Shown here: positions 21,743-63,039 of the stretch, in pieces | Layout: each line of letters opens with the position of its first letter | Position numbering within the stretch: the first letter of the stretch is position 1 | Position numbers and translations under genes: made by a program | From: Leptolyngbyaceae cyanobacterium clean351 | GTDB taxonomy: Bacteria > Cyanobacteriota > Cyanobacteriia > DAIDHW01 | Reading direction: 5' to 3' | NCBI GenBank assembly: GCA_027451865.1 | Contig: DAIDHW010000001.1 | Span: 905,530 to 969,529, forward strand | DNA: 64,000 bases | The notes under the pieces: model-generated | Database searches by the model: none | What the model was told of the DNA's origin: nothing | The model's input: only the letters and a program-made list of their open reading frames with translations

Positions 21743-22885
21743 ATGATCAAAGTATTGGTGATCGACGACGACCCGATCGTACAATTGATCCTCAGTCGGG
21801 CTTTACGTAAGCAGGGCTACGAGGTTTCCATGGCCAGCAACGGGCAAGAGGGACTACTCAAGGCCCGCCAACTCCAACCAGCCCTAGTGATCTGTGACTG
21901 GATGATGCCGGTGATGGATGGTCTGCAGGTATGCCGGCAGATTAAGTCTGACCCCAAACTGTTGACGACCTTCTTTATCTTAGTGACAGCCCGGGGGGCC
22001 GTAGAAGACCGGGTCAGGGGTCTAGACACCGGTGCTGACGACTTTCTTTCCAAACCTATTGAGTTGGTCGAGTTGTGGGCTCGAGTCCGGGCGGGACTGC
22101 GGCTGCACCAGGTTAACCAGGCTCTGCAGGACCAAAAGCAAATTCTGGAAGCGGAACTATCGGAGGCGGCCGACTACGTACGCTCGCTCCTGCCGCATCC
22201 CCTAAAAGGCGAGGTGGAGATTGATACCCGGTTTATTCCTTCCAAACAGCTAGGAGGGGATTGCTTTGATTTTTACTGGCTTAATCCCGATGAGCTAGTT
22301 TTCTACCTCCTTGACGTCTCGGGCCATGGGGTTGGTTCAGCCCTATTATCGGTTTCAGTCCTGAATCTACTACGCTCCCGCGGTCTGCAGGCGGTTTCCT
22401 TTACCAGTCCCGCCAGTGTCCTGACCGCCCTGAACGACACATTTCAGATGTCCCAACATAAGGATTTATACTTCACCATCTGGTACGGAGTCTATCACCG
22501 CCAGAGCCGGGAGCTGGTGTACGCTAGTGCTGGCCACCCCCCGGCGGTTTTTACTACTCCCCAACAAACCGTCTCTCTCAAAACTATTGGCCCCCCCATT
22601 GGCATGCTGTCGGACATCCAGTTTTTCGAAGATGTCTTCCGGATACCGGGTCCGGGTAGCCTCTATGTGTTCAGTGATGGAATTTACGAAATCAATCAGT
22701 CCGACGGCCACGTTTGGGGCCTTAAGGCCTTCACTGAGCTTTTGGCACAGCAAGCCGTGTGTCAAGGCTCTAATCTTAAGCAAATCCTCTACCGCCTGCG
22801 CACGGTCGGTAATCAAACCTCCTTTGGTGACGACATCTCAATTCTGCAGATTAATTTCCCGGGGAGTCTCCCAAGTTTAGGCTAG
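21743..22885 (+). CDS. response regulator with PP2C-type (SpoIIE/RsbU-like) phosphatase output domain
   Basis: Receiver domain (VLVIDDD, LVICDWMMPVMDG, KP) followed by PP2C/SpoIIE-like region (FYLLDVSGHGVGSALLS). Confidence 0.8.
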   Translation: MIKVLVIDDDPIVQLILSRALRKQGYEVSMASNGQEGLLKARQLQPALVICDWMMPVMDGLQVCRQIKSDPKLLTTFFILVTARGAVEDRVRGLDTGADDFLSKPIELVELWARVRAGLRLHQVNQALQDQKQILEAELSEAADYVRSLLPHPLKGEVEIDTRFIPSKQLGGDCFDFYWLNPDELVFYLLDVSGHGVGSALLSVSVLNLLRSRGLQAVSFTSPASVLTALNDTFQMSQHKDLYFTIWYGVYHRQSRELVYASAGHPPAVFTTPQQTVSLKTIGPPIGMLSDIQFFEDVFRIPGPGSLYVFSDGIYEINQSDGHVWGLKAFTELLAQQAVCQGSNLKQILYRLRTVGNQTSFGDDISILQINFPGSLPSLG

Positions 22886-24719: not shown

Positions 24720-24992
24720 ATGACTATGCCTGCCCCTAACACTCCCCTCTACAGTCACCCCCTGCCCGTCATCGAGGAGTGGCTGCTAGCCCAAGGGTGC
24801 CAACAGGACCGGGAAGGTCTACACTGCTGGCACGTTCAGCGGCCGGGTTGGCAAGCTGAACTAGTTCTGGACATTGAACAAGTATCAGTCCGCTACCTGG
24901 GGGCCGGGGTGGGAGGACGGGACATCACCCGTTCCTTCAAGTACTCCCTCACCCGGGAGGATGTGGAAAACGCCGTGTTTTCCGGCCCCTAA
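24720..24992 (+). CDS. hypothetical protein
   Basis: 90-aa ORF with protein-like composition; no recognisable motif. Confidence 0.4.
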   Translation: MTMPAPNTPLYSHPLPVIEEWLLAQGCQQDREGLHCWHVQRPGWQAELVLDIEQVSVRYLGAGVGGRDITRSFKYSLTREDVENAVFSGP

Positions 24993-25000
24993 GGATCTTC

Positions 25001-26305
25001 CTAGTTATTCAAGTTTAAAAGGGCCCGCGCCACGCTCTTAACGTCTGGGTAGCGCCGGTCCCAACTGGGATGGGTGAGGTTGTAGACTACTGTAGCCATG
25101 CCAGAACTGATTCCAGGTACCGTGTCTACCGCTAACCGGAGCTCCCGGTCGGCAAACTTATAGAATAGGCTGGGCTGCTGACCGGTAAGCAAATAGACTA
25201 GGGTTGGTCCGAGGGAGTACAGGTCGGAGGCAGGCAGGGGGTTACCTTCCTGTTGTTCGGGAGCCATATAGGCGGGTAGACCAACCTGGGTACCGGTTAG
25301 AGTGGTTGAAACTCCCCCCTGTAACCCTACTAGGGCAACCTCTTGGCCCTCCGGAGGATTGGCGCGTAAGATAATATTGGCAGGGCGGATATCTTGGTGC
25401 AAAACCGGCGGGGATTGGCTGTGTAGGTAGTCGATGATTTCGCACACCCGCAGCATCAACCACACCACCTGGGGTTCAGACCACCTACCCTTTTGGGCCA
25501 CTAACTTTTCCAGGTCATGGCCGTAGACCATCTCCCGCAATAGGTAGGGCTGTTTGTCCGCCCAAAAATAGTCGTGCAGATGGGCAATCCCCCAGTGGTT
25601 CAACCCCTGGAGAATCCTCGCCTCCTGCTCAAGGATGGCTTGGGCGCGGGGGTCATCTGACCATTCGGCGTTGAGGGTTTTGAGCACCCTGCTCTGACCG
25701 TTGAGCCATACTAGGTAGTTGACATTAAGGCTACTGCGCATCAAGGTCTTGAGCACCTGATGGTTAGCAATGGTCTGGCGGGGTTCGAGGGGCTGGCCAC
25801 AGTTGAGGCAGAAACTCAATACATCCCGCCCTGGTAGGTGGTCACAAACCCAAGCTGGAACCTGAGTCTGAAGGAGGGATGGGGAAATTCTAGGGGAGGG
25901 GGCCGGGGTAACCGGGGGAGCTAACTCTGGCTCAGTGCGGTGAACTTCCGAGGGGCGGGGCGGCGGGGCGGGAGTCTGAGTTTCCGCCGCCGGTTTAGAG
26001 CCCTGGGGATTCAAGGAGATTTGCATGCTCGGTCCTGAACGAGCCAGTCTGATTACCATGCCGTCGGTTACTGCCAAGGAGTGGATTTGCTCTCCCTCCA
26101 CGTAGGTACCGTTGGCTCCCAAGTTGACTACCTCCCAGCCCTCCCCCATCCGCCTGACTTCCACATGGGAGCGCGAGACCACAGCACTGTACAGGACCAC
26201 ATGGTTATGGTCAGAGCGACCGATTCGGATCACCGACTCATCGGTAAAGGTCCAATTCTGAACTGGGGTATTCTTCAGGGGGTGTAACAGAGTTAGGGTA
26301 ATCAC
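25001..26305 (-). CDS. FHA domain / zinc-ribbon / protein-kinase-like (probable pseudokinase) protein
   Basis: N-terminal FHA motifs (IRIGRS...SRSHVEV...NGTYVEGE), Pro-rich linker, Cys cluster (CDHL...CLNCG), then kinase-like fold with HQDIRPAN in place of HRDxKxxN, no GxGxxG loop, no DFG, but APE retained. Confidence 0.7.
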   Translation of the reverse strand: MITLTLLHPLKNTPVQNWTFTDESVIRIGRSDHNHVVLYSAVVSRSHVEVRRMGEGWEVVNLGANGTYVEGEQIHSLAVTDGMVIRLARSGPSMQISLNPQGSKPAAETQTPAPPPRPSEVHRTEPELAPPVTPAPSPRISPSLLQTQVPAWVCDHLPGRDVLSFCLNCGQPLEPRQTIANHQVLKTLMRSSLNVNYLVWLNGQSRVLKTLNAEWSDDPRAQAILEQEARILQGLNHWGIAHLHDYFWADKQPYLLREMVYGHDLEKLVAQKGRWSEPQVVWLMLRVCEIIDYLHSQSPPVLHQDIRPANIILRANPPEGQEVALVGLQGGVSTTLTGTQVGLPAYMAPEQQEGNPLPASDLYSLGPTLVYLLTGQQPSLFYKFADRELRLAVDTVPGISSGMATVVYNLTHPSWDRRYPDVKSVARALLNLNN

Positions 26306-26310
26306 GTCAT

Positions 26311-26943
26311 CTAGGGGAGTTGAAATAGAAAGGTGACTAAACTACCCTTGCCCAGGGCAATACAGTCCCCCGAACGGAGGCGATGACGGTTTCCAGGTAG
26401 GAGAGGCAGACCATTAATATAGGTGCCATTGGCACTCCCTGAATCCTCCAGGAAATAAGCATCACCTTCAACCCGGATGTCAGCGTGGACTCGGGAGACT
26501 ACTTCCGAGTGGGGAAAGCCAGAGACATCAATGTCTGGCGGAATACGATCGTTGGGCTTGCCAATATGAATTACGTCTAGGCCTGAGGGCAGCTCGATAG
26601 TGGTGTTGGTTTGGACATGGCACAGACGCGCCGTCCCCATCTGCAGTTGGGTTTTCTCAATGTGAGTCGGCTCGTGGGGAGCGGGGAAGGCCTGGGAAAG
26701 AGTCTCCCGGGGGTCAACCACAGGGGGTTCCGCCGGAGGGGCTGGGGTGGCAGGTACCGACACCGGAGAGGGCATAGCCGGGGGCTGCAGATTAGCCCCA
26801 CACTGGCCACAGAAGCGAGCATCAGTCTGGACTGGGGCTTGACATTGGGGACAGGTGGCTAAGGCGGGCAACGGGGCATAACACTGTTCGCACTGTACTG
26901 CCCCCTCAGGATTTTCGTGATTGCAACTATTGCAAATGGTCAT
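26311..26943 (-). CDS. zinc-ribbon / Pro-rich / FHA domain protein (FraH-like architecture)
   Basis: N-terminal double Cys-pair zinc ribbon (CNSCNHE...CEQC...CPQC...CGQCG), Pro-rich linker, C-terminal FHA domain (SRVHADI...SANGTYING); 5 bp downstream gap to the preceding gene. Confidence 0.7.
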   Translation of the reverse strand: MTICNSCNHENPEGAVQCEQCYAPLPALATCPQCQAPVQTDARFCGQCGANLQPPAMPSPVSVPATPAPPAEPPVVDPRETLSQAFPAPHEPTHIEKTQLQMGTARLCHVQTNTTIELPSGLDVIHIGKPNDRIPPDIDVSGFPHSEVVSRVHADIRVEGDAYFLEDSGSANGTYINGLPLLPGNRHRLRSGDCIALGKGSLVTFLFQLP

Positions 26944-27172: not shown

Positions 27173-29818
27173 TCAGTAAAAGTCATCGTTTCCCGACTGT
27201 TGCTCAAAGATCTGGAGCTGCTCAGGGGGACAGACCGGTTCCTGAGGGTCGCCAGAGGGCACAATTCTCCGTAATCCTACGGAAATCTTACTGTGTCTCT
27301 CGATTTGGCGCAGGACCTGGCGGGCCCGACTAATTACCTGGGGAGGTAACCCGGCTAGGCGTCCGGCCTCAATACCGTAGGAACGTTGGGCCCCTCCGGG
27401 CTGGACTCGGTGGAGAAAGACAATTTGGTCTGGGAGCTCCTGAACGGTGACCTGATAATTGGCGACCGTGGGTAGGAGGTTGGTCAGCTCATTCAACTCG
27501 TGGTAATGGGTGGCAAAGATTGTACGGGCCTGAATAGTCAGAGCCAGGTGCTCCGCCACAGCCCAGGCAATAGAGAGCCCATCAAAGGTAGCGGTGCCCC
27601 GGCCAATCTCGTCTAGAAGCACCAGGGATTGGGCAGTGGCGTGGTTGAGAATATTGGCGGTTTCGTTCATTTCCACCATGAAGGTAGATTGGCCGGTAGC
27701 TAGGTCATCCACCGCCCCCACTCGGGTAAAAATTCGGTCGCAGATGCCTAGGGTGGCACTCTGGGCCGGCACAAAGCTGCCTACCTGGGCCAGCAGTTGG
27801 ATCAGTCCGACCTGGCGTAGGTAGCAACTCTTACCACTGGCGTTGGGACCGGTCAGGACAATTAGATTAGGCTGCTCACCGAGGTACGTGGAGTTGGGGA
27901 CGAACAAACCCGCTGGTAAAGTCTGCTCCACCACCGGGTGGCGGCCAGCCTGCAAATTTATTTCCCGACCCGGCACCAGACGGGGGCGGCAATAGTCCTG
28001 GGCTAGGGCTAGTTCGGCTAGGGCACAGAGCACATCCACTGCTGCCACGGCCTGGGCTGTGTCTCGGATCAAGTCTGCCTGGTCGGCTGCTTCCTGGCGC
28101 AGGGCCGTGAAGATCTCGTACTCTAGCTGTTGAATATCAGCCTGAGCCGTAAAAATGCGCGCCTCCCGTTCCTTTAGGTCGGGGGTAATGTAGCGCTCCT
28201 CCTGGGTGAGGGTTTGCTTACGAATGTAGTCAGTCGGCACCTGGGAGGCCTTGGTCCTAGACACACTGATGTAGTAGCCAAAGGCCTTGGTAAAGTTGAC
28301 CTTAAGGGTGCTGATGCCGGTGCGCTGACGCTCTCGCACCTCTAGATCGGCAATCCACTGCTGGTCTTCAACTACCTGGCGGCGTTTCTCGTCTAACTGC
28401 GGGTGCACCCCCGGGCGGATCAGGTTGCCCTCCTTCAGGTGCAGGGGGGGGCTTTCTACCAGGTGAGCCCTCAGGCGCTCCCCTAGGTGAGTCAGAGCAG
28501 GGGGGACCTGCTGAAGGGCCTGGAGGTAGGTAGTCTCTGCCCCCTGGACTAGGCTAGCCAGGTTAGATAGCCTGATGAGGGAGCTGGCTAGGCCTACTAG
28601 GTCCCGGCCGTTAGCGGTACCCGACCCGGCCCGGCCCGCCAAGCGCTCTAGATCGTAGATCTGAGTAAGCTGCTGCTGAAGACTCTGGCGCCGGGAGTTG
28701 TCAGCGATCAGTTCAGCGATAGTCGCCTGACGAGCTTCAATCGCCGGGATCGCCAGGAGGGGTTGTAGTAACCACCGGCGCAGAGCTCGGCCCCCCATGG
28801 CGGTCACAGTCTTGTCCAAAGCCCAGAGGAGAGAACCGGAAAAACTGCCATCCCGGACTGTCTGGGTGATCTCCAGGTTGCGCCGGGTTTGGTAATCCAG
28901 GATCAGATAGTCCGTGAGGATGTAGGTGCGGGGTAATTGTAGAGGGACTTGAGTTTGCCGCTGGGTGTCCTGGAGGTAGTTGAGTAGCCCCCCCGCCGCC
29001 CGCACCGCTAGGGGCAGATGTCCACAGCCAATCCCCTCCAGGGAGCGCAGCTGAAATCGGCTCAGGACCTGGTCGCGGGCTCGCGGTAACCGGAATTCCT
29101 CCTGGGGACGCAGGGTGTAGCAAAACTGACTAGGCAGGCAAGGGAGGAGGTGGTCTGTACCTTCCCCGGGCCGCCACAACCCCACTAGGTCCGGAGTCGG
29201 ACTAGGGAAAAGTACCTCAGCAGGCTGTAGACGAGTTAACTCTCCCGTTAAACCATCAAGGAGGTCAGCCTGGGTGGCCCAAAACTCCCCAGTGGAAATG
29301 TCCGCGTAGGCTAGCCCCCAGTGGTTACCAGTAATCACCACTGCCGCGAGGAAGTTATTTCGGCGAGCGGGCAACATCCCCTCAGCTAACACCGTCCCCG
29401 GGGTCACTACCCGCATTACTTCCCGTTTCACTAATCCCTGAGCTAGGGCTGGGTCTTCCGCTTGGTCGCAAACGGCTACAGCGTAACCGCGCTCTACCAG
29501 TAGACTGCAGTAGCGGTCTAGGGCGTGGTGCGGCACCCCGGCTAGGGGCACTTGACCAACTTCCTCACCAGCGTGCTTGCCAGTCAGGGTCAGCTCCAAC
29601 TCCCGAGCGATAGTGACTGCGTCTTGAAAGAAGGTTTCGAAGAAATCCCCCACCCGGTAAAACAAGATCGCTTGGGGGTGCTGGTCCTTAGTCTCCACGT
29701 AGTGACGCATCATCGGTGTCAAGTCTTGCCGGTTGACAGACCGATGGTCGGCGTAGCGCACTGTGTGTTTGGCCAGTCGGGGCGGGAGGTCCGGGGGAGG
29801 AGCAGTCATGGTAGCCAT
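27173..29818 (-). CDS. mutS: DNA mismatch repair protein MutS
   Basis: MutS N-terminal mismatch-binding region (TPMMRHY...[15 protein letters not shown]) and Walker A ([10 protein letters not shown]). Confidence 0.9.
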
Positions 29819-52465: not shown

Positions 52466-53266
52466 CTAGACCGGGGGGGCTGACTTTAGATCAATGGTCA
52501 GCTCTGGCCGTGGAAAATTATCGACAGTGACCAGAACCACTGTAATGTTATCCTTCCCCCCCTTTTCCTTAGCAGCGTTGACTAGGGAAGCCACTGCTTT
52601 TTCACTGGCACGAATACTCTTGAGGTAAGAGGCAATAGTTTGGTCAGAAAGCTCCTCTGTTAATCCATCACTGCACAACAATAGGCGGTCGGCTGGATGC
52701 AGGTCCAGACGTTGGATCGTGACTTCGGCCAAGTCTTCGCGTCCTAAACATTGGGAGAGAACGTGCCGCCAAGGGTGCGTGCGTGCCTGGTCAGCTGTCA
52801 TCTCCCCGGTGCGCATCGCCTGGGCTACCCAGGTGTGGTCCTCCGTCAACTGCTCTAAATCATAGCCCCGGAGACGGTACAGGCGCGAGTCCCCCACGTG
52901 GGCACACCATACCTCCTCTACTTTATCGCCCTCAGGCAGAGTCTCTTCTCGGAACAGCAGCACGACGATGGTCGTACCCATGTCGGAGCGTTCGGGATGC
53001 TGTTGCTGGTCCTTGACTATTTCTCGGTTGGCTAGTACCAAAGCTGCCCGGAGCATCTGGGGGGAGGTCAAGTCCGAGTCCCAGTGCTCATTCAGGTGAG
53101 CTTGAATCGCCTGGGTAGCAATTCTACTGGCTTCCTGACCCCCAGCATGGCCCCCCATGCCGTCGGCAACTATGAAAAAGCGGCCGTGTGGGTCGATATA
53201 ATAGTAATCTTGATTGGATGACCGCAGCAGACCCGGATCAGTGAGGCCCGTAAAAAAACACTTCAT
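52466..53266 (-). CDS. PP2C-family Ser/Thr protein phosphatase
   Basis: PPM motifs ([29 protein letters not shown]). Confidence 0.85.
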
Positions 53267-53310
53267 CGATGGTTACAAGGCGGACAACTTGAATAAACCC
53301 AATCTATTTC

Positions 53311-55074
53311 CTAGGACATACGCTCTAGACGACCCAGGCGTACTATCAATCGCAGAAGAGCCAAACCCACCATCCCCAATCCTGCTAGGGCAAATAATGC
53401 TAACCAGACGTGGTGATTAACATAAAGGATAACTGATGATAACATTAGGGCGGCACCAAAAATAGTATAGTTGGTGCCGACTTGCAGGGTGCCCAGTCGT
53501 CTCAACAGTCGGTCGCTTTCCGTTGACCGCGTCCTTAGGCGCAGGTCTCCGCGCTCCAGTTTCTCGAGGGTGGTTTCGATCCGCCGCGGTAATCCTAGGG
53601 CTGAGGTGCTCACTTGGGCTGCCTGCCGTCCCAGATCTCCCAATAAGCTCCCGCCATCAGGGTTTTTGTTACTACTCATAAATTGTAGGGCGAAAGGCTG
53701 TGCCACTTCCATGAAGTTGAATTTCGGGTCTAGTCCCTTCCCCACCCCCTCCAAGGTGGAAAAGGCACGCATGACGAAAGTGAAAGTAGCCGGGAAGCGA
53801 AAGGGTTGGTCGTAGGCAATCTCGTAGAGGTCATCACTGATGGCGGCCACGGATTGCTGCTCAAAGGGCTTGTCCATCAGGTTATCCATAATGTACTGCA
53901 CAGAACGGCGGACCGGCCCCAGGTCTTCTACCTCAGCTAGGGCACCTAGGTCGATGAGGGTCAGAACTACCCTATCCCCGTCTTTCTGAGCAATGCTAAA
54001 GAGCAGGTCGGTTAGTTTTTGGCGGGTAATGGGGGATATCCGCCCCATCATGCCGAAATCATAAAAAATCAATTCCCCCTGGGGAGTAACAGCTAGGTTG
54101 CCGGGATGGGGGTCAGCATGGAAAAAGCCATGGTGCAGAAGCTGATGCAGGTAGGCCTCGGCACCCAATTTAGCCAGGCGGCTGCGGTCAAGGCCAGCGG
54201 CCTCTAGGGCTTCGTTATGGCTAATTTTAATCCCAGGCAGGTATTCCAAGGTCAGTACCCGGGGAGAGGTGTAACGCCAGTAGACTCGAGGCACAACCAC
54301 CCAGTCAAGACTACGAAAGTTACGCCTAAAGGTATCGGCATTACTGCCTTCCTTGAGGTAATCAATCTCCTCGTAGAGGATCCGACAACACTCCTCGTAA
54401 ATCCCCAGCCAGTCCCGCCCCCGGCCCCAGTAGGGATGCCCCTGAAAATAGCCGGCGATGCTCCGCAGAATTGCCAAGTCAATCTCAAAGAGCTTGCGCA
54501 ATCCCGGCCGCTGGACCTTGACTACCACCTCTTCGTGAGAATGCAGGCGGGCCCGGTGGACTTGGCCGAGACTCGCAGCCGCGAGGGGCACAGGATCAAT
54601 ACTGGCAAAGGACTCTTCCCCACCTTTGCCTAGGTCTTGGTTAAGAATCGCCCTGACTTGTTCATAGCTAAAGGCAGGCACCTTATCCTGCAGCTTGGAT
54701 AGCTCCTCTACGTACTCGCTAGGAAACAGATCGGCGCGAGTAGAGAACAGTTGTCCTACCTTGATGAAGGTGGGCCCTAAATCCAAGATGGTCTCTCGAA
54801 TCCAGATGGCCTGAGCTCGGCGACGGGCATTGCGTTTAGCATCTGTCATGCCTCCCCAATAACTCCAGGACTTGTTGTTCAGCCAGAGGGAGAACAGCAA
54901 GGTCAAGACGAAGGTCCAGATGTCCAGGAACCGGCGCTCTCGGGAGTATTTCTCCCGGTTCCAGCGGTAGTTTTTCCGTGGGCGGACAGGCTTCTGGGGT
55001 GCACCACCACAGTTCACTTGAACTTCCAAGCCAGGGGGAGAGGAGGGGTAACGAGCATCAGGGATGGCAGACAC
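53311..55074 (-). CDS. ABC1/UbiB-family atypical kinase
   Basis: ABC1 signature (IASASLGQVHRA, HADPHPGN); C-terminal hydrophobic helices. Confidence 0.8.
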   Translation of the reverse strand: MSAIPDARYPSSPPGLEVQVNCGGAPQKPVRPRKNYRWNREKYSRERRFLDIWTFVLTLLFSLWLNNKSWSYWGGMTDAKRNARRRAQAIWIRETILDLGPTFIKVGQLFSTRADLFPSEYVEELSKLQDKVPAFSYEQVRAILNQDLGKGGEESFASIDPVPLAAASLGQVHRARLHSHEEVVVKVQRPGLRKLFEIDLAILRSIAGYFQGHPYWGRGRDWLGIYEECCRILYEEIDYLKEGSNADTFRRNFRSLDWVVVPRVYWRYTSPRVLTLEYLPGIKISHNEALEAAGLDRSRLAKLGAEAYLHQLLHHGFFHADPHPGNLAVTPQGELIFYDFGMMGRISPITRQKLTDLLFSIAQKDGDRVVLTLIDLGALAEVEDLGPVRRSVQYIMDNLMDKPFEQQSVAAISDDLYEIAYDQPFRFPATFTFVMRAFSTLEGVGKGLDPKFNFMEVAQPFALQFMSSNKNPDGGSLLGDLGRQAAQVSTSALGLPRRIETTLEKLERGDLRLRTRSTESDRLLRRLGTLQVGTNYTIFGAALMLSSVILYVNHHVWLALFALAGLGMVGLALLRLIVRLGRLERMS

Positions 55075-55111
55075 TGAATTTCCTGCAGAACAGACCTAAA
55101 TAGTACTAGCC

Positions 55112-55408
55112 CTAATAGTTCTTTAGTTCGGCTCTTAGCCGGGCAACTTCGGCGCGCAGGTCATCTAAGGTGGCCTGCAGGTCGGCGGTGGGACTATGCC
55201 ATGGCTGTGGCTGAGCAACAGTATCATCCATCGAACTCTCGGCACGTTCCTGGACTTGGAGAATAAACTCGTGCAGCCACTCGCGCTGTTCAGCATCAAA
55301 CCTGCCTAGTCCACTGAGGCATTGGACTAGGGCATTTTCTAATTGTTCGTTAAGGGTTTCAGCAAAGCTTCTGCCTAGAAAAAAGGCGTGGACGGGAGAT
55401 TTGTTCAT
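55112..55408 (-). CDS. hypothetical protein
   Basis: 98-aa helical ORF with coiled-coil-like C-terminus. Confidence 0.4.
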   Translation of the reverse strand: MNKSPVHAFFLGRSFAETLNEQLENALVQCLSGLGRFDAEQREWLHEFILQVQERAESSMDDTVAQPQPWHSPTADLQATLDDLRAEVARLRAELKNY

Positions 55409-55453
55409 GGCAAACTTTGCATATCTTTACTGGGATTATAACCTAGCCAGGCC

Positions 55454-56539
55454 CTAGGGAGATGGGCTGGTGACAGTCACTGGCCAGTTGGGTTGCGGGG
55501 GAAAACTCTGGTCGTGGCGAAACATAGGCAGGGCAGTCAAAATGCCTAACCGCAGACCTAGGCCTAGGGCCGCACCCAGGAAACCAGCCCAAAAAGAGAT
55601 GTACAGCAAGCTCCGGGGAGCTGGATGGGGCCCTGAGGAGGAGTGACTAGGGGACATGGGCTTCGCTTTACCTTGGTTTTTACTGGGTTTGGCGGGTCGG
55701 GTCTCCGGGCGCACCAGGGGCGGGGGAGCCATCTCGGGCAACAGCTCCAACCAAGCCTGCACAGTTTGGGGCCGAGCATCCGCCTCGATTTCCAGGCCTC
55801 GCAGGATTGCCACTTCAAGGGCGGGCGGAACCTCTGGAGACCATTGCTTGAGACTGGGCAAGCGCACTCGGTTACGGAGGGGAGCCGCCACTGGGGAATT
55901 ACCACCCAGGAGAAAGTAAAGGGTGGCAGCTAAGGAGTAAACGTCGGTGGCAGGGCTGAGACGACTCTGGGGTAAGTATTGCTCTAGGGGAGCATAACCA
56001 TCGGTGAAGATGCCCGTCTGGACCTGCTCGGCGTGGATAGACTGCTCACGGGCGATGCCAAAGTCAATTAGTACTACTGAGTTAGTGCCTTGACGGCGAA
56101 TTATATTTTGGGGTTTAACATCTCGGTGTAGCAGCCCCTGACCATGGACGGCCACCAAAGCCCGGCCAATCTGACGGATGTACTGGAGAGCTAGAGAAGG
56201 AGCTAGGGGCTGCTTAGGACTGACGACCTCGTCTAGGGTTTGGCCAGGAACATAGTCCATGACCATAAATAATCCCCCATCCTCTTCAAAAAAGTCTAGG
56301 ACCCTGACAATGTGAGGATGTTGGCAGCGGGCCAGGTGGCGAGCTTCCCGTAAAAAGCGCTGGCGGAGGTTTTTCAGGTCCAGACCAGTGGCAAGGTTAG
56401 GCTGGAGAGTCTTGATCACCACAGGCTGGTCCAAGTACATGTGGGAGGCCTGGTAGGTGACCCCAAATCCTCCTTGCCCTAAGACCTTTTGCAGGATGTA
56501 CTTGTTACCCTGAAGTATTTGCCCGGCGGCTAGCTGCAT
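55454..56539 (-). CDS. Hanks-type Ser/Thr protein kinase with C-terminal membrane anchor
   Basis: GQGGFG loop, VVIK, HRDVKPQN, DFG, APE; Pro-rich linker and C-terminal hydrophobic helix. Confidence 0.85.
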   Translation of the reverse strand: MQLAAGQILQGNKYILQKVLGQGGFGVTYQASHMYLDQPVVIKTLQPNLATGLDLKNLRQRFLREARHLARCQHPHIVRVLDFFEEDGGLFMVMDYVPGQTLDEVVSPKQPLAPSLALQYIRQIGRALVAVHGQGLLHRDVKPQNIIRRQGTNSVVLIDFGIAREQSIHAEQVQTGIFTDGYAPLEQYLPQSRLSPATDVYSLAATLYFLLGGNSPVAAPLRNRVRLPSLKQWSPEVPPALEVAILRGLEIEADARPQTVQAWLELLPEMAPPPLVRPETRPAKPSKNQGKAKPMSPSHSSSGPHPAPRSLLYISFWAGFLGAALGLGLRLGILTALPMFRHDQSFPPQPNWPVTVTSPSP

Positions 56540-56583
56540 AGGTTCAGCTTAACTTTGCAGCCATATTAGCAGAAATTTCTTAC

Positions 56584-57924
56584 CTAAGGTTTTGGGGGAG
56601 GAAAGTGGCTACGCACAAAGGAAATGGCCTCAGTACGCCCTTGTACCTCGCCGTCCAAGGTTGCCCCGAGGAGCACCTCGAGAATTTCCCTGAATTGAGG
56701 GCCAGGCTGGTAGCCCAATTCTAGTAGGTCCTGGCCAGTTAAGGGGGGAGGAGTCTGAGACCAGATGGTTAGGTAGTTCCAGACCCACCGCCGGACTGGT
56801 CCCGGGTTTCTGAGGGTCACTAGGTGCAAGACCGACCGACTCCACCCCTTGAACAGAACCACCGCCTGACTAGGAGTCAGCCAAGACCCCAGGTGATTGA
56901 CCAGTTGGGCTTCGGCGGCTGCTAAATCCTCCAGGTGACGGAGGCTTTCCTGGGGTAAGTGGAGAGCTAGGGCAGCCTCAGCCCGGGCGGTGGTGGCCAG
57001 CTGGGCCAGGATAACCTCCAGGCGACCCGGCCAAGGGGGTAAGGCACAACGGTTGGCTAACCTCAGTTGTCGCTGCAGGCTAGTACTCCAAATCAGGTCA
57101 GGATGGATACAAGCCAAGGCCCCCAACTGGGCGAGCTGATTGAGGGCGGCGAGCCACTGGCGATTGGTGGTCATGGTCAGCAGGCACTCTAGTTCCATCC
57201 CCAGGCGGCTGCCTAGACCCGGGGGTCGTGACCCGGGCCCGGCTCGGTGAAGGAGCTGGCGGTAAAACTGGCTGGCCTGCCGCATTAGGGATTGATCGGT
57301 AACAGTAATAGCAAAGCCCAAGCGGCAGCTAAACCTCACCCCGCGATAGATTCGGGTGGGGTCCTCAATGAAGCTGCCCGGGTGGAGGGCGCGAATCACA
57401 TGGTTATGCAGGTCCTCCAACCCGCCATGGAGGTCAATCAATTCCCCAGGGTGGGGCGAGGTAAGGCAGATTGCCAAGGCATTGATCGTAAAGTCGCGCC
57501 GGTACAGGTCTAGGGCTAGGGTACTCGGCTCGACCTGGGGATTGGCAGCTGGGTAGGGATAGGACTCCCGGCGGGCAGTAGTTAGATCGAGGGCTAAGGG
57601 AGTCGGCTGATGCCAAGCCAGGGTAGCAGTCTGAAATTCCCGGTACACCTGCAACCGAGAGGTCGGGTCTTGCTGATGGAGAGCCTGGGCCAAGGCAATG
57701 GCGGGAGGCAAGCCCTCTAAGGGGGGGCCCTCAACAGTTAGATCCAAGTCCTGTTTGAGGTCTATTCCCAGTAACAGGTCCCGTACCGCCCCCCCGACTA
57801 GGTACACCTGCCATCCCCGAGACTCAGCTAAGGAGGCAACCTGCCTCAGCAGTCCCTGAGCCGAGGGAGACAGGGCCTGGCCAAGCTGCAGCAAGAGGTT
57901 TTGCTTCAAGGTAACCCGGCCCAT
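56584..57924 (-). CDS. tRNA nucleotidyltransferase (CCA-adding enzyme) / poly(A) polymerase family
   Basis: Head-domain motif LVGGAVRDLLLG...DLDL. Confidence 0.75.
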   Translation of the reverse strand: MGRVTLKQNLLLQLGQALSPSAQGLLRQVASLAESRGWQVYLVGGAVRDLLLGIDLKQDLDLTVEGPPLEGLPPAIALAQALHQQDPTSRLQVYREFQTATLAWHQPTPLALDLTTARRESYPYPAANPQVEPSTLALDLYRRDFTINALAICLTSPHPGELIDLHGGLEDLHNHVIRALHPGSFIEDPTRIYRGVRFSCRLGFAITVTDQSLMRQASQFYRQLLHRAGPGSRPPGLGSRLGMELECLLTMTTNRQWLAALNQLAQLGALACIHPDLIWSTSLQRQLRLANRCALPPWPGRLEVILAQLATTARAEAALALHLPQESLRHLEDLAAAEAQLVNHLGSWLTPSQAVVLFKGWSRSVLHLVTLRNPGPVRRWVWNYLTIWSQTPPPLTGQDLLELGYQPGPQFREILEVLLGATLDGEVQGRTEAISFVRSHFPPPKP

Positions 57925-58021
57925 TTTTCGCTAATTTCCCCAAGAGATTCTGATAATCTAGGCTTAGGACTGGTCGCAAGCCCGGGGTCTAGTCCATTGA
58001 AAACTACCTGCAGCAAAACAA

Positions 58022-58213
58022 ATGTTAACAATTGCCTTTCAAGTTTGCCTAACTGCCCTAGTGTTATTGTCCTTCCTAATGGTGATCGGCGTACCGGTAG
58101 CCTACGCCACTCCCCAAAACTGGAACCAATCTAAGAGCTTAATGCTCCTGGGGTCCCTTCTTTGGGTGGTTTTAGTAGTTTTGGTGGGTGTACTGAACTT
58201 TTCTGTGGTCTGA
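58022..58213 (+). CDS. psbZ: photosystem II reaction centre protein Z
   Basis: 62-63-aa two-helix protein with the conserved PsbZ core [13 protein letters not shown] ... VGVLNF. Confidence 0.85.
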
Positions 58214-58225
58214 GTATTAGGCTGC

Positions 58226-58774
58226 ATGACAGTTTTTGAAGGTAATTTCAGTAATACTGAGCATCTCCACCTGGCAGTTGTCATTGGTAGATTCAATGAC
58301 CTAATCACCAATAAGCTTTTGAGCGGTTGCCAAGACTGTCTTAAGCGCCATGGAGTAGACCCTGACCCCCAGGGTGACCAGGTAGATTATGTCTGGGTAC
58401 CGGGGAGCTTCGAAATCCCCCTAGTGGCTCGTCAGCTAGCCCTTACAGGCAACTATGATGCGGTCATTTGTCTGGGAGCTGTAATCCGTGGTCAAACCCC
58501 CCACTTTGACTACGTGGCTGCAGAAGTAGCCAAGGGGGTGGCAGCAGCTAGTTTTCAGACCGGCGTACCGGTAGTGTTCGGGGTCTTGACCACAGACACT
58601 TTACAGCAAGCCCTAGAGCGGGCGGGCATCAAGGCTAATCACGGTTGGGACTACGCCATGAATGCCCTGGAGATGGCCAGTTTAATGAGACAGTTGCGGG
58701 GCACCCTCAGATCTCCCCAGGCGGCCCTAGTCCCGGGGGCCGCCACTCCCCTACTAGACCCCTCCGCCGTTTGA
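58226..58774 (+). CDS. ribH: 6,7-dimethyl-8-ribityllumazine synthase
   Basis: Lumazine synthase motifs ([30 protein letters not shown]). Confidence 0.9.
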
Positions 58775-58786
58775 GCTCATAGGGGC

Positions 58787-60316
58787 TTAGAGGCGTCGGG
58801 AAAGCAGGCGGTAGATCAACAGAAAAAGCGCCATGGTCACTAGGGACCCGAGGGCGAGAATCACGCCGCCTGTAGCAATAACCATGCTGGCGTCAACTAA
58901 GCCGTGGAGGGCAAATGCCGCCCTCACCTGGGGGATAAAAGCCACTACTGTAGTGCTCACTACTGCCACTACAACTAGGTCGAATCGCTCGATCAGCTGG
59001 CGGGCTTGAACACCGATTAAAACTACTAACAGGAGGAGCCAAGCCCCCACCGCCCCTAGGGTTGGTCCAAGCAGGCTCACCAGTAAAATCAGAAGCACTC
59101 CCCCCTCAAAACCAGTAAACAAGGCCGAATTCAGTAACCTCAGGGCTGGGAGGTGGCGGGGGGGTTGACGGACTGGGGCCGGCCGGGCTGGGGTGGGAGT
59201 GCCCAAGGCTTGGGTAGGCGGCACAGGACTGGCAACGGCGGGGGGCTTACCGCCGGGTAGGACTTGGGTGGGGGGAACGGCAGGGACCGGTTTGGCGGCT
59301 GGTCCGGCCGGCGGAGCTGGCAGGGTGGGGGGGAGAGGCTGGTTGGGGCCTGGCCGGGTTGAGGCTGGAGATTCCCGCAGTAGCTTCAAAATGACCTCGG
59401 CGGAGGAGGGGCGGTTTCGGGGAGACTGGGAAAGCATCAGGTCTAGAAGTTTCGCCAGGCGCTGGCTGACCTGGGGGGCGTAGGGGCGCCAATTCCAGCA
59501 GTTGCGATTCCCGTCGTAGAGTTGCTCTGGCTGCTGCCCGGTCAAGAGCATCACACAGGTGGCCGCTAGGGCGTACAGGTCCGTGGTGGGAGATACCGCC
59601 GCCCCTAGCATCTGTTCGGGGGGGGCAAACCCCGGGGAGTAGATCTCCGTTGACCGGCCTGAGCTGGTGCCCTGGGTAATCTTTTTTACGGCCCCAAAGT
59701 CCAGCAAAAAAAAATGGCCATCCTGCCGGCGCATAATGTTAGAGGGCTTGACATCCCGATGAATGGTGCCCTGACTGTGGACGAACTGGAGAATCTCCAA
59801 GACGCTTTCTAGGACCTCTAGAACTTGGGCCTCAGAAAACTTCCCCTGGGCCGCCAACTCCTGCTCTAGGGTTAGGCCATCAATAAACTCTTGCACCAAA
59901 TAGAAATACTCTTCCGTTACCCCGGGTCGGGAGCTAGGGACCGTGAGGGGAAAGAAGGCCAAAAGTTCCGGAATGTGACGGTTTTGTTTGCCTAGCTGGG
60001 CAAGCACCTCTCCCTCCCGCTCAAACAAGTCCTTAGCCTTGGCTAGTTGTTCTGGTCCAAGGCTCACCGCCGGCTGGAACTGTTTTACCACACAGGTGCT
60101 CAGATTTGGCATTCGTCGGTCTAGGGCCAAGAAAGCCGCCCCAAACCCCCCCCGCCCCAGGAGTTTTTGGGGCAGGTAGCGGCCATCGAGAATCAGGACC
60201 ATGCCGCAACTAGTGCAGAATTTCTGGGTTACCCCCCGCAGGGCAGCCGGCTCATCTAAGTCTGGGCAGGAGTTTTGGGGATGCTGGCAACCGGGACGGG
60301 TACAGTGGATAAGCAT
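58787..60316 (-). CDS. Hanks-type Ser/Thr protein kinase with N-terminal zinc ribbon and C-terminal membrane region
   Basis: N-terminal Cys cluster (CTRPGC...CTSCG), GRGGFG, VVKQ, HRDVKPSN, DFG, APE; Pro-rich linker, C-terminal hydrophobic helices. Confidence 0.85.
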   Translation of the reverse strand: MLIHCTRPGCQHPQNSCPDLDEPAALRGVTQKFCTSCGMVLILDGRYLPQKLLGRGGFGAAFLALDRRMPNLSTCVVKQFQPAVSLGPEQLAKAKDLFEREGEVLAQLGKQNRHIPELLAFFPLTVPSSRPGVTEEYFYLVQEFIDGLTLEQELAAQGKFSEAQVLEVLESVLEILQFVHSQGTIHRDVKPSNIMRRQDGHFFLLDFGAVKKITQGTSSGRSTEIYSPGFAPPEQMLGAAVSPTTDLYALAATCVMLLTGQQPEQLYDGNRNCWNWRPYAPQVSQRLAKLLDLMLSQSPRNRPSSAEVILKLLRESPASTRPGPNQPLPPTLPAPPAGPAAKPVPAVPPTQVLPGGKPPAVASPVPPTQALGTPTPARPAPVRQPPRHLPALRLLNSALFTGFEGGVLLILLVSLLGPTLGAVGAWLLLLVVLIGVQARQLIERFDLVVVAVVSTTVVAFIPQVRAAFALHGLVDASMVIATGGVILALGSLVTMALFLLIYRLLSRRL

Positions 60317-60629: not shown

Positions 60630-61620
60630 CTCCTGTTGGGCCGGGCAACTCTCAAGTTATAGGGACTCAACTCCCTCCTTCGAGTGTGGGCGCGTGCCAA
60701 GTTGTTTTGTGTCTTTGCCCAATCTGTTGGGTAGGCATCGTGAGTGAAGACTTGCAGGACCGATTCATAGAGTTTTATTGCCCGTTCTAGATTCTCGGCC
60801 CGAGCGCCCCGAGTCCTTTCAGGGATTCAACTCCCTCCTTCGAGTGTAGGCGCGTGCCAAGTTGTTTTGTGTCTTTGCCCAATCTGTTGGGTAGACATCG
60901 TGAGTGAAGACTTGCAAGGCCGATTCATAGAGTTTTATTGCCCGTTCTAGATTCTCGGCCCGAGCGCCCCGAGTCCTTTCAAAGTAAGCATTTGCTCAGT
61001 GGTTTTGTGTTTTTGCCCAATCTGTTGGGAAGGCATCGCGAGTGAAGACTTGCAACGGCAATTGATGGAGTCGGACCGCCTGTTCATGGTTCTCGGCCTG
61101 ATCGCCCCGGATCCGGTTATAGTAAGCCATTGCTAAATAATTTTGGGTCTTGGCCCAGTCTGTTGGGAAGGCATCACTAGTTCTCACTTGCAAGGCCGAC
61201 TTATAGAGTTGGATTGCCTGCTCCAGATTCTCAGCCCGATCACCCAGGAGCTGATTAAAGTAGGCAAGTGCCAAGCTGTTTTGGGTCCTTGCCCACTCTT
61301 CCGGGAAGGCATCACGAGTAAAGACTTGCAGGGCCAATTTAGAAGCCTCAATTGCCTGCTCCAGATTCTCAGCCCGGTCACCCCGGAGCCGATAACAGTA
61401 GACATTGGCCAGGCCATATTGTGTTCTTGCCCACTCTTCCGGCAAGGCATCGCGAGTAAAGACTTGCAGGGCCAATTCATAGGCCTCAACCGCCTGCTCC
61501 AGATTCTCAGCCCGCTCGCCCTGGATCCGGTTAAAGTAGGCAAATCCCAAGTTATTTTGGGTTTTTGCCCACTCTTCCGGCAAGGCAACACGGTTTATAT
61601 TTCGCAGCGCCGATTTATAG
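60630..61620. repeat. tandem repeat array, about 120-160 bp period, encoding TPR-like 40-aa units
   Basis: Copies at 60661-60820 and 60821-60980 differ at about 5 of 160 positions; further, progressively divergent units continue to about 61620. Confidence 0.6.
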
Positions 61621-62551
61621 GTTTAGATCGCCCATTCCCACTTCTCTACCTGGTTGCTCCCGATTTGGGTAGGTGGTTTTTGCAGGGCAGAATCCCCCCC
61701 CAGGGCCTGGAGCACCTCCTGGGCCCGTTGGTAGCGCTGCTCTGTAGCGGCCATCAGCAGGCGGTCAAGGACTTGCCCGAAGGAAGGAGAAACAGGGATA
61801 GGGAGGAAATCTCGCCACACCCACTTACCCTTAAGGGAGGAGTACAGGTCAAAGGGCTGCACTCCCGTGAGCAGGTGGATGCAGGTGACCCCCAGGACGT
61901 AGAGGTCGCTGGCGTAGACGGGCTTACCCCGCAGTTGCTCCGGGGCCGCGTAGTCGGCGGTGCCAATAACGGTACCGGTTTTAGCCAGCTGGTGGGGGTC
62001 GACCTGACAGAAGGCGCCAAAATCCACCAGCATGTAGGTGTGACTGCCGGCGCGCCGCATGATGTTGTCTGGTTTAATGTCCCGATGAATCACCTGGTGG
62101 TCGTGGACAAATGCCAACACCGGCAGGATGTTTTCTAGCAGTTGCCGGGTCTGGTCCGCGGACCAGGGCCCCTGACTGGCGAGGGCCTCACTCAAGTTCT
62201 GGCCATCAACAAACTCCTGGACTAGGTACAGGTGCTGGTCTTGGTAAAAGTAGGACAGCAGGGCAGGGATCTGGGGGTGAGCTCCGAGGGAAGCTAGTTG
62301 CTGAGCCTCCTGCTCAAATAGTTCAGCTGCCTTTTGCCGGTTGCCACTCTGGGGTAGGACTTGCTTGATGACACAGCGCTGCTGGTGGGGATGGTCCTGG
62401 TCTACGGCCAAGACCGGCCGAAGCCCCTCAACCAGAGGGGCTTGAGGGCCCGGTAGCGCTCCTGCAGGAGCAGTTTGGCGCCGCAGTGGGGGCAGAAGTT
62501 GGCAGTCCCGCCCAACTGGGGTCTAGGACAGGCGGGGTTTAAACAGTACAT
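60996..62551 (-). pseudogene. disrupted Ser/Thr kinase-TPR-repeat gene
   Basis: Zinc-ribbon N-terminus (MYCLNPACP...CPHCG from 62551) runs into a stop; kinase domain (HRDIKPDN, DFG, APE) continues in another frame from about 62411; in-frame TAA at 61623-61625 separates it from the TPR repeats. Confidence 0.5.
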
Positions 62552-63039
62552 CCCCACGGGATAAAGATACTAAGGGTTTACTTAAACATAATCTTAGAGC
62601 AGAATTTTTGCGGCCCAGCATACAATACAGGTATTTTATAATAGATAGTTTTAGTTTACTAAAAAATTACAACCTAGTGGAGAGTCTCAAGCTGATAATA
62701 GGGGGACATGAAAGAATTCAAAAGGTGAAAGAAAAGACTGGGGACACTCGTGGTCAGGAAATCTGTTCTGGTTATTTAACGGCTTGTCCGGACGACTCAG
62801 CTGTCAAGTTATTTTGGGTTGTTGCCCAAGCAGACCGACAGGAAGATTCCCATGACCAATCGAAGCCCTAAGGGGAATACCACGCTAACCCCGGCTGTCT
62901 CTATGATGTAGACTGAGTCACCGCCGTTCAAATGGCTAGCATCATTTGGCATCACATATAATTTTTGTAACTTTGAGTTGCCAGAATGATCGAGAATAAC
63001 GGAAACCACCACGGTGGTCACCATGGCTGGGATTATTTA

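Follow-up and report, generated by a model that had tools for sequence, protein, structure and literature searches.

A 64,000-nucleotide stretch of the genome of Leptolyngbyaceae cyanobacterium clean351 (contig DAIDHW010000001.1, positions 905,530 to 969,529), hereafter called the window in its full length, carries on its minus strand two genes in close succession, here termed geneA and geneB. Judged from primer-encoded termini and from Nostoc homologues, geneA is an orthologue of Anabaena FraH (Alr1603). The product of geneB combines an FHA domain, a zinc knuckle and a kinase-like domain, and the latter is, as far as its residues tell, a pseudokinase by the usual K/D/D criterion because the Asp of the DFG motif is missing and the glycine-rich loop is gone. 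The best explanation of the arrangement is a single operon encoding two phosphothreonine readers. The original prediction, made from the letters of this DNA, had described two FHA genes on the same strand, 5 bp apart and with opposite domain order, which was borne out by the open reading frames (ORFs) and by Pfam. The stop codon TAG of geneA occupies positions 26311-26313 and the GTG start of geneB positions 26303-26305; read from this GTG, the protein begins with MITLTLLHP, the N-terminus conserved in all geneB relatives. No terminator-like site was found in the minus-strand spacer by a promoter and terminator scan, which was otherwise uninformative.

In geneA, Pfam matched the DZR (double zinc ribbon) family at amino acids (aa) 4-49 (PF12773, E 2e-11) and an FHA domain at aa 136-198 (E 8e-16). 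The AlphaFold2 (AF2) model has a mean predicted local distance difference test score (pLDDT) of 83 and features a flexible stretch at aa 53-100 and a folded FHA domain at aa 101-210 with values above 90; like that of geneB, it was built as a single chain from a 120-sequence alignment. Accordingly, the layout of zinc ribbon, Pro-rich linker and C-terminal FHA domain, which had been predicted as that of FraH, is confirmed. Still, the label "FraH-like" attached to it was too weak. The 2866 homologues of geneA are spread throughout the cyanobacteria and include 288-aa Nostoc proteins that share 74-80% identity with its FHA half, and the peptides MIVCPNCN and VTFLFKLA, encoded by the published primers for Anabaena fraH (PMC9035410), are the consensus N- and C-termini of the geneA family. 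Among 120 homologues, all eight Cys of the zinc ribbon as well as S150, R151, H153, N172, G173 and T174 of the FHA domain are invariant, and the linker varies in length. The canonical GR of FHA domains is G128-K129 in 120/120 (aa 128-132, window 26548-26562), and an Arg at position 133, four residues past the GK, occurs in just 95/120. Directly before the FHA domain lies the candidate phosphosite T98-Q-L-Q, which is kept in the family as T-Q-[LI]-Q (T in 119/120, Q in 116/120, L or I in 120/120, Q in 119/120) despite its position at a flexible boundary. Since T98 aligns with T176 of a 288-aa Nostoc commune protein, one residue shorter than the 289-aa Anabaena FraH on which pT177 was reported (PMC9035410), it is probably the equivalent of this phosphosite.

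For geneB, the FHA domain was matched at aa 26-87 (E 4e-13) and Pkinase at aa 203-431 (E 9e-23, 81 bits); the region of the Gly-rich loop stays unmatched because the match begins only at profile position 24. The AF2 model (mean pLDDT 86) limits disorder to aa 106-148 and shows both lobes of the kinase fold in full and with pLDDT above 90; for this model, Foldseek gave Rad53, PknI and PknB as top matches, and also PknA, with a template modelling score of 0.8 on target for PknB and PknI. Pfam, AF2 and alignment thus agree with the predicted sequence of N-terminal FHA domain, Pro-rich linker, Cys cluster and kinase-like domain. The FHA domain carries fully canonical residues of the phosphothreonine pocket, namely GR, SxxH and NG(T).

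The catalytic inventory was taken from a residue alignment to PknA, PknB and canonical relatives. In place of an intact Gly-rich loop and DFG motif, this alignment gave M189-R-S-S-L-N194, with no Gly remaining of GxGxxG, and GLQ. The catalytic loop, H303-Q-D305-I-R307-P-A-N310, keeps Asp and Asn and features Q for R and R for K. APE (348-350), the alphaF Asp D361 in SD361LYSLG and the alphaH-I Arg R418 are kept. All of this agrees with what had been read from the letters, that is, APE and SDxxSLG retained, HQDIRPAN for HRDxKxxN, and neither Gly loop nor DFG; beyond that reading, the beta3 Lys K209 (VAIK) and the alphaC Glu E228 are retained as well. Since the ATP-clamping Gly loop and the Mg-binding Asp are lost, the domain is most likely no phosphotransferase, a statement that draws on sequence only, given that K209, E228, D305 and N310 remain. 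The positions of all these elements are listed in Table 1.

Table 1. Location of the gene pair and its elements in the window, and of two related modules at other loci
Feature	Position	Strand	Basis
geneA, predicted FraH orthologue, 210 aa, ATG start	26311..26943	-	ORF; Pfam DZR and FHA
geneA double zinc ribbon, aa 4-49, four CxxC pairs	26797..26934	-	PF12773
geneA Pro-rich disordered linker, aa 53-100	26644..26787	-	AF2 pLDDT 49-65
geneA T98-Q-L-Q motif directly N-terminal of FHA, candidate phosphosite	26641..26652	-	conservation
geneA FHA domain, aa 101-210	26314..26643	-	Pfam; AF2 pLDDT >90
Spacer ATGAC, 5 nt, geneA stop to geneB GTG start	26306..26310	-	sequence
geneB, FHA, zinc knuckle and predicted pseudokinase, 434 aa	25001..26305	-	ORF; Pfam; AF2
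geneB FHA domain, aa 1-98, with G29-R30, S44-R-S-H47, N65-G-T67	26012..26305	-	Pfam
geneB Pro-rich disordered linker, aa 99-150	25856..26011	-	AF2 pLDDT <50 for aa 106-148
geneB knuckle C154-x-H156...C166-x-x-C169, directly N-terminal of kinase fold	25778..25855	-	alignment
geneB kinase-like domain, aa 177-434	25004..25777	-	Pkinase; PknA/PknB alignment; AF2; Foldseek
geneB degenerate Gly-rich loop MRSSLN, aa 189-194	25724..25741	-	ungapped alignment to GQGGMG/GRGGMG
geneB catalytic-loop remnant HQDIRPAN, aa 303-310	25376..25399	-	alignment
geneB DFG site, G327-L-Q	25319..25327	-	alignment; metal-binding Asp lost
DZR-PP2C and canonical FHA-kinase modules	L085:2884-6254; L087:2910-6284		

Conservation of the linkage

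Relatives of geneB were located by a pattern and tblastn scan with one genome per species, which gave at least 593 places, of which 80 were kept; together with two metagenomic loci, 82 loci were compared. A FraH-like ORF lies directly upstream of the geneB relative and on the same strand in 74 of them, and the exceptions are mostly contig ends besides a small Leptolyngbya/Phormidium group without fraH within 5 kb. Linked loci occur in Leptolyngbyales, Phormidesmis, Stenomitos, Thermosynechococcaceae including Thermosynechococcus, Acaryochloridaceae (Acaryochloris marina MBIC11017, L028), Elainellaceae, Microcoleaceae, Coleofasciculaceae, Oscillatoriales-type taxa, Crinalium and Chroococcidiopsis. 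Likewise, Thermosynechococcus HN-54, sampled from the FraH side, has the pair. In the Synechococcales metagenome-assembled genome GFS_7557, two copies with near-identical motif states were found on different contigs (L074, L076), which may reflect either a duplication or redundancy of binning or assembly.

The pair might have stayed together as inherited synteny, with two FHA proteins that are independent and uncoupled in function. This would fit the position of pgl (6-phosphogluconolactonase, Glucosamine_iso), which in 63/82 loci is the immediate same-strand neighbour upstream of fraH although no functional link is obvious, the variable distance between fraH and geneB (from 2 bp to over 400 bp, with 1684 bp in L010), and the occurrence of FraH alone in Nostocales and Snowella. 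Nevertheless, order and strand are held in 74/82 loci from deeply diverged lineages, although the flanks of the pair differ between these lineages, and the window keeps the pair even though pgl is absent from the position upstream of geneA, where mutS (27173-29818) stands instead. Moreover, several lineages including the window feature a spacing of 2-12 bp, which is typical of translational coupling, and in a paralogous module, too, an FHA-kinase comes after a zinc-ribbon protein. Functional independence of the two genes is therefore regarded as very unlikely. The pgl-fraH order, for which the loci L003-L082 and also L001, L083, L088 and L090 were considered, was seen in Nostocales (Nostoc commune, Anabaenopsis) as well.

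At the fraH loci of Nostoc commune, Anabaenopsis and Snowella, the next gene encodes a Peptidase_M50 protein and no geneB is present there. Likewise, no Nostocales entry was found in the geneB clade among 120 protein matches, 80 loci and 20 named representatives, although a relocated copy may exist in this group. In a Planktothricoides-type metagenome contig (L090:5156-5575), an FHA-only ORF follows pgl and fraH, which is 59% identical to aa 1-99 of geneB and has no kinase remnant downstream.

The neighbourhood and the fold also bear on a further explanation, according to which geneB would be an anti-phage defence kinase of the PD-T4-6 kind or else a decaying pseudogene. PADLOC models of PD-T4-6 do match the kinase-like domain with up to 147 bits, and NCBIfam gives matches to the MADS6 and PglW kinases far below cutoff. 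However, these matches reflect the generic kinase fold only, geneA has no PADLOC match, and the vertically conserved neighbourhood is of a housekeeping kind (pgl, mutS, purF) and without a mobile-element context. Kinases of defence systems furthermore need catalysis, whereas the catalytic motifs of geneB are degenerate, and an ORF that is intact, confidently folded and conserved argues against a pseudogene. Both variants are consequently considered highly improbable.

Catalytic residues and FHA domain in the geneB family

The geneB family was surveyed in 189 non-identical members, taken as best matches to the degenerate query, and trees were calculated from BLOSUM distances by neighbour-joining (NJ). 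The motif calls for divergent members are alignment-dependent, and a check by regular expression agrees with them. The catalytic positions have decayed to different extents: the Gly loop is kept in 51/189 members, the beta3 Lys in 131/189 (lost in 58), the alphaC Glu in 97/189, the HRD Asp in 116/189 (lost in 73), the catalytic-loop Lys in 76/189, the catalytic-loop Asn in 142/189 (lost in 47) and the DFG Asp in 68/189. An intact K-D-D triad is found in 44/189 and the full set of seven catalytic positions in 13/189. The losses combine to 39 distinct patterns, and on the NJ tree they require no fewer than 9 changes at the DFG Asp and 16 at the HRD Asp. An alignment-free regular expression recovered HRDxKxxN...DFG from 11 of 120 FraH-linked kinases.

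The FHA domain was constant throughout. G29, R30, S44, R45, H47, N65, G66 and T67 are invariant in 189/189 members, the phosphothreonine-binding residues likewise in 120/120 kinases of a sister family described below, and mean column conservation amounts to 0.80 for the FHA domain versus about 0.58 for the kinase lobes. Within the kinase fold, H303 and D361 are invariant in all 189 members and R418 is nearly so; the C/H/C/C residues of the knuckle are kept in 151/121/160/151 of the 189 and in 120/120 sister kinases. The clade of geneB itself comprises seven sequences with at most 50% identity to geneB, all of them without Gly loop and DFG Asp and with G-L/M-x at the DFG position. Their mutual identity is 71% in the N-lobe and 22% in the linker, and this N-lobe identity despite the degeneracy speaks for selection and a maintained protein rather than decay. 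Because the FHA pocket is invariant while the kinases are active, dead or dropped and the gene as a whole may be lost, the comparison supports the FHA domain rather than catalysis as the putative selected function across the clade.

The same residues can be read differently, namely as those of an active kinase of atypical make, comparable to CASK or WNK, which would phosphorylate FraH in an operon of kinase and substrate. With the beta3 Lys, the alphaC Glu, the Asp of HxD and the catalytic-loop Asn, geneB keeps a considerable part of the catalytic equipment, its own clade conserves the N-lobe including the altered loop to a high degree, and many family members feature GFG at the DFG position, as does CASK, which is an active, Mg-independent kinase. 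In addition, a smaller part of the family is canonical throughout and nevertheless linked to FraH, for instance at locus L003. The Gly loop of geneB is, however, wholly replaced by MRSSLN; across the family, the HRD Asp, the beta3 Lys and the Asn were lost in many combinations, and one lineage dropped the kinase domain entirely. Catalysis is therefore not the conserved function of the clade, and an active geneB kinase appears rather unlikely.

Two sequence motifs were examined as possible phosphosites or markers and rejected. A T-Q-hydrophobic phosphosite shared by the TQLQ of FraH and the activation loop of geneB is not supported, as that loop varies strongly across the family and carries its Thr in no more than 81/189 members. 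About two thirds of the family have, a short way past the FHA domain, a D/E-x-T-(L/V/I)-x-Q-R motif (region of aa 105-118, about 25952-25993 in the window); as a marker of active members it failed, being uncorrelated with the catalytic triad and absent from the clade of geneB.

The paralogous module

Among 1.84 billion representatives searched, only 220 matched geneB at E <=1e-30, of which about 40 have its architecture; a second tier of matches shows the same layout of FHA, CxH...CxxC and kinase with canonical motifs. Short FHA-only representatives (P0350, P0370, P0378, P0382) were seen in the same search. The sister family was collected with P0268 as the query, which returned 2400 proteins, and in the best 120 of these GxGxxG and HRDxKxxN...DFG are present throughout (120/120) and the activation loop GTRIGAEGY is invariant. 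These kinases come from Nostocales and from genomes which also carry geneB relatives, and both paralogues were found together in Kovacikia minuta CCNUW1, Leptothermofonsia ETS-13 and Stenomitos frigidus ULC029. Reciprocal monophyly of the two families is seen in the NJ trees, where they also form one clade against generic kinases. When the sister family serves as the outgroup, the root of the geneB family comes out as a canonical kinase under parsimony, with at least six state changes required, so that geneB, by its sequence relationships, is the descendant of an active FHA-kinase.

The gene ahead of the sister kinase in Tolypothrix tenuis PCC 7101 and Leptothermofonsia encodes a protein of 664-694 aa, which begins with a double zinc ribbon and also has a PP2C phosphatase domain; the ribbon is collinear with that of geneA from Met1 and 35-40% identical to it. 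Cyanobacteria thus seem to carry two look-alike modules, one of DZR-PP2C followed by an active FHA-kinase, and one of DZR-FHA (FraH) followed by a mostly dead FHA-kinase. Both are headed by a DZR protein, after which comes a protein of FHA, CxH...CxxC and kinase; the kinases are paralogous over their full length and the upstream zinc ribbons homologous. The modules differ in the upstream protein, which has PP2C where FraH has its FHA domain, and in the kinase, which is canonical in 120/120 cases of the PP2C module. Because domain content, gene order and adjacency match, the sister module is probably that of Alr0547 and Alr0548 in Anabaena, and alr0548 is listed as a serine/threonine kinase (STK) with FHA domain in the 2007 census (PMC2176072). 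In Thermosynechococcus, tlr1128 had been considered as the geneB orthologue; this was withdrawn, since the 2007 census excluded proteins without catalytic motifs and tlr1128 may therefore be the canonical paralogue.

Further genes of phospho-signalling and other functions are located in the window. A DUF3143 gene (24720-24992, plus strand) is convergent with geneB, their stop codons being only about 8 bp apart. Around 2 kb from the pair and on the opposite strand, positions 21743-22885 (plus) encode a fusion of a response-regulator receiver domain with a SpoIIE/PP2C phosphatase domain. A minus-strand cluster at 52466-60316 includes a PP2C phosphatase (52466-53266), an ABC1 atypical kinase (53311-55074), a canonical STK (55454-56539), a PolyA_pol/CCA-type nucleotidyltransferase (56584-57924) and an STK with an N-terminal 4-Cys prefix (58787-60316). 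At 61500-62600 (minus), a Ser/Thr kinase is apparently frameshifted inside its Gly-rich loop, with the 4-Cys prefix and RYRALKPL..GFGR in one frame and HRDIKPDN, DFG and APE in another (ORF 61623-62411); either the gene is disrupted or the sequencing was faulty.

Proposed mechanism and known systems

The function of FraH in the reorganization of intracellular membranes is known only for Anabaena (PMC9035410, PMC11500504). A fraH mutant is without honeycomb membranes (PMC11500504), overexpression of FraH leads to condensed thylakoids, and a complex of FraH, Alr4359 and the CurT-family protein Alr4119 is found at the heterocyst poles (PMC9035410). In the same work, affinity purification with mass spectrometry yielded two enzymes along with FraH, the kinase Alr0548 from vegetative cells and the phosphatase Alr0547 from heterocysts (PMC9035410). 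The original prediction knew of no described function for the pair, which does not hold for FraH, with its role in honeycomb thylakoids and its interactome (PMC9035410). While FraH itself is known and cyanobacterial FHA-kinases were catalogued in 2007, no description of a fraH-geneB operon, of a degenerate FraH-linked clade or of the relationship between the paralogous modules was found in the literature available, and the text of the Synechocystis two-hybrid paper contains nothing on FHA proteins.

On these grounds, the pair is probably, at a moderate level of confidence, a non-catalytic couple of phospho-readers, the marks of which would be written and erased by the active paralogous module and which would feed into FraH-dependent thylakoid organization. 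A phospho-dependent scaffold of two FHA readers, one of them on a dead kinase, had been suggested from the outset and gains support from the FHA residues kept in 189/189 members, the decay of catalysis and the linkage in 74/82 loci. In the proposed course, the canonical paralogue, as the most economical candidate, or another Hanks kinase would write Thr-phosphates on FraH, on geneB or on both, with the near-invariant T98-Q-L-Q as the candidate site in FraH, and the zinc-ribbon PP2C would erase them. The two FHA domains would read these phosphates and thereby form a phospho-dependent complex of FraH and pseudokinase, in which the dead kinase fold may serve as a docking or allosteric surface and not as an enzyme. 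The presumed output is the organization of thylakoids or intracellular membranes by FraH together with CurT-type proteins. Which protein phosphorylates which, the complex itself and the output in the source organism are all inferred in this scheme.

Several points weigh against this reading. FraH occurs without geneB at its locus in Nostocales and Snowella and can thus work alone. With K209, E228, D305 and N310 kept, geneB may bind nucleotides or be capable of atypical catalysis. Phosphothreonine binding by the FHA domain of FraH is assumed in spite of GK for the canonical GR, and T98 is equated with pT177 via a related protein of Nostoc, in which the numbering differs by one residue. The candidate phosphosites of geneB are poorly conserved, with an activation-loop Thr in 43% of the family and the linker motif lost in its own clade. 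Furthermore, the function of the geneB family is deduced from sequence, the census was drawn from the best matches of a degenerate query, all trees are of the NJ type, and Alr0548 and Alr0547 were assigned by domain content and adjacency and not by their sequences.

A more far-reaching version is put forward tentatively and is considered possible rather than probable. Here, one duplicated operon would have given rise to a two-tier phospho-circuit, with the FHA-kinase and the PP2C as writer and eraser and FraH and the FHA-pseudokinase as readers, which jointly set thylakoid architecture via FraH and CurT, geneB being an allosteric partner or a decoy of the active paralogue. If this were true, the repeated loss of catalysis would represent a natural experiment in the birth of pseudokinases, in a series from active enzyme via dead scaffold and FHA-only protein to complete loss in Nostocales.

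The importance of the locus results from FraH being one of few proteins known to be necessary for thylakoid remodelling, as in the honeycomb membranes of heterocysts. FraH is not confined to heterocyst formers, and many non-heterocystous lineages pair it with a dedicated, putative FHA-pseudokinase; the canonical paralogous module appears to match the two enzymes recovered together with FraH from Anabaena. A defined circuit of four genes can accordingly be proposed, in which the residues of interest are T98 and the GK variant of the FHA domain in FraH, and R30 and S44 in the FHA domain of the pseudokinase. Besides, a large, phylum-wide clade of predicted bacterial pseudokinases with graded and repeated catalytic loss is added to a field in which few bacterial examples have been studied.

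Among the known systems, Anabaena FraH is the nearest to geneA, with a double zinc ribbon, a linker rich in Pro and an FHA domain at the C-terminus, all as in geneA, and with matching termini. The synteny with pgl is common in the family including Nostocales. In contrast, Anabaena FraH is longer (289 versus 210 aa), the linker of geneA is shorter, the source organism of geneA gives no evidence of heterocysts, and the FHA-pseudokinase that follows geneA after 5 bp is missing from the Nostocales fraH loci examined. The best full-length match to geneA in the PDB is ArnA of Sulfolobus acidocaldarius (5a8i), which has the same order of zinc ribbon, linker and FHA domain; it is archaeal, though, and the match is weak (E 3e-6). 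ArnA acts with its partner, the vWA protein ArnB, within a complex controlled by kinase and phosphatase, and the output is archaellum expression.

For geneB, the bacterial STK atlas of 2025 offers two families for comparison in its available parts. CP1 is cyanobacteria-rich and partly degenerate, as is the geneB family; an assignment to it was rejected because CP1 is defined by fusion to a COG3899 ATPase and geneB has only FHA and Pkinase (PMC12599244). CCM1 features an N-terminal FHA domain in some members and is treated as a canonical family, and no mention of a FraH-linked degenerate FHA subclade was found in those parts. The eukaryotic FHA-kinases of the Rad53/Chk2 type share with geneB the order of N-terminal FHA domain and kinase, Rad53 (1-466) being the top Foldseek match to the whole model. 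Nevertheless, they are catalytically active, lack the zinc knuckle and are only 15-16% identical to geneB.

The closest mechanistic precedent is that of MviN, FhaA and PknB in Mycobacterium tuberculosis, a bacterial pseudokinase domain with an FHA adaptor, in which MviN is phosphorylated by PknB and thereby recruits the FHA protein FhaA (summarized in PMC12599244). The MviN pseudokinase differs in that it is fused to a membrane flippase, has no activation loop and belongs to an unrelated sequence family (ActPs3). Unlike MviN, geneB has its own FHA domain, is soluble and has a zinc-ribbon partner. Of such a scaffold, only the components are present here, namely a predicted pseudokinase and two FHA domains, along with active kinases and phosphatases of the PP2C type elsewhere in the genome. 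FHA-mediated assembly of the Rad53/Chk2 type provides a second precedent for a pseudokinase that would act as a docking surface.

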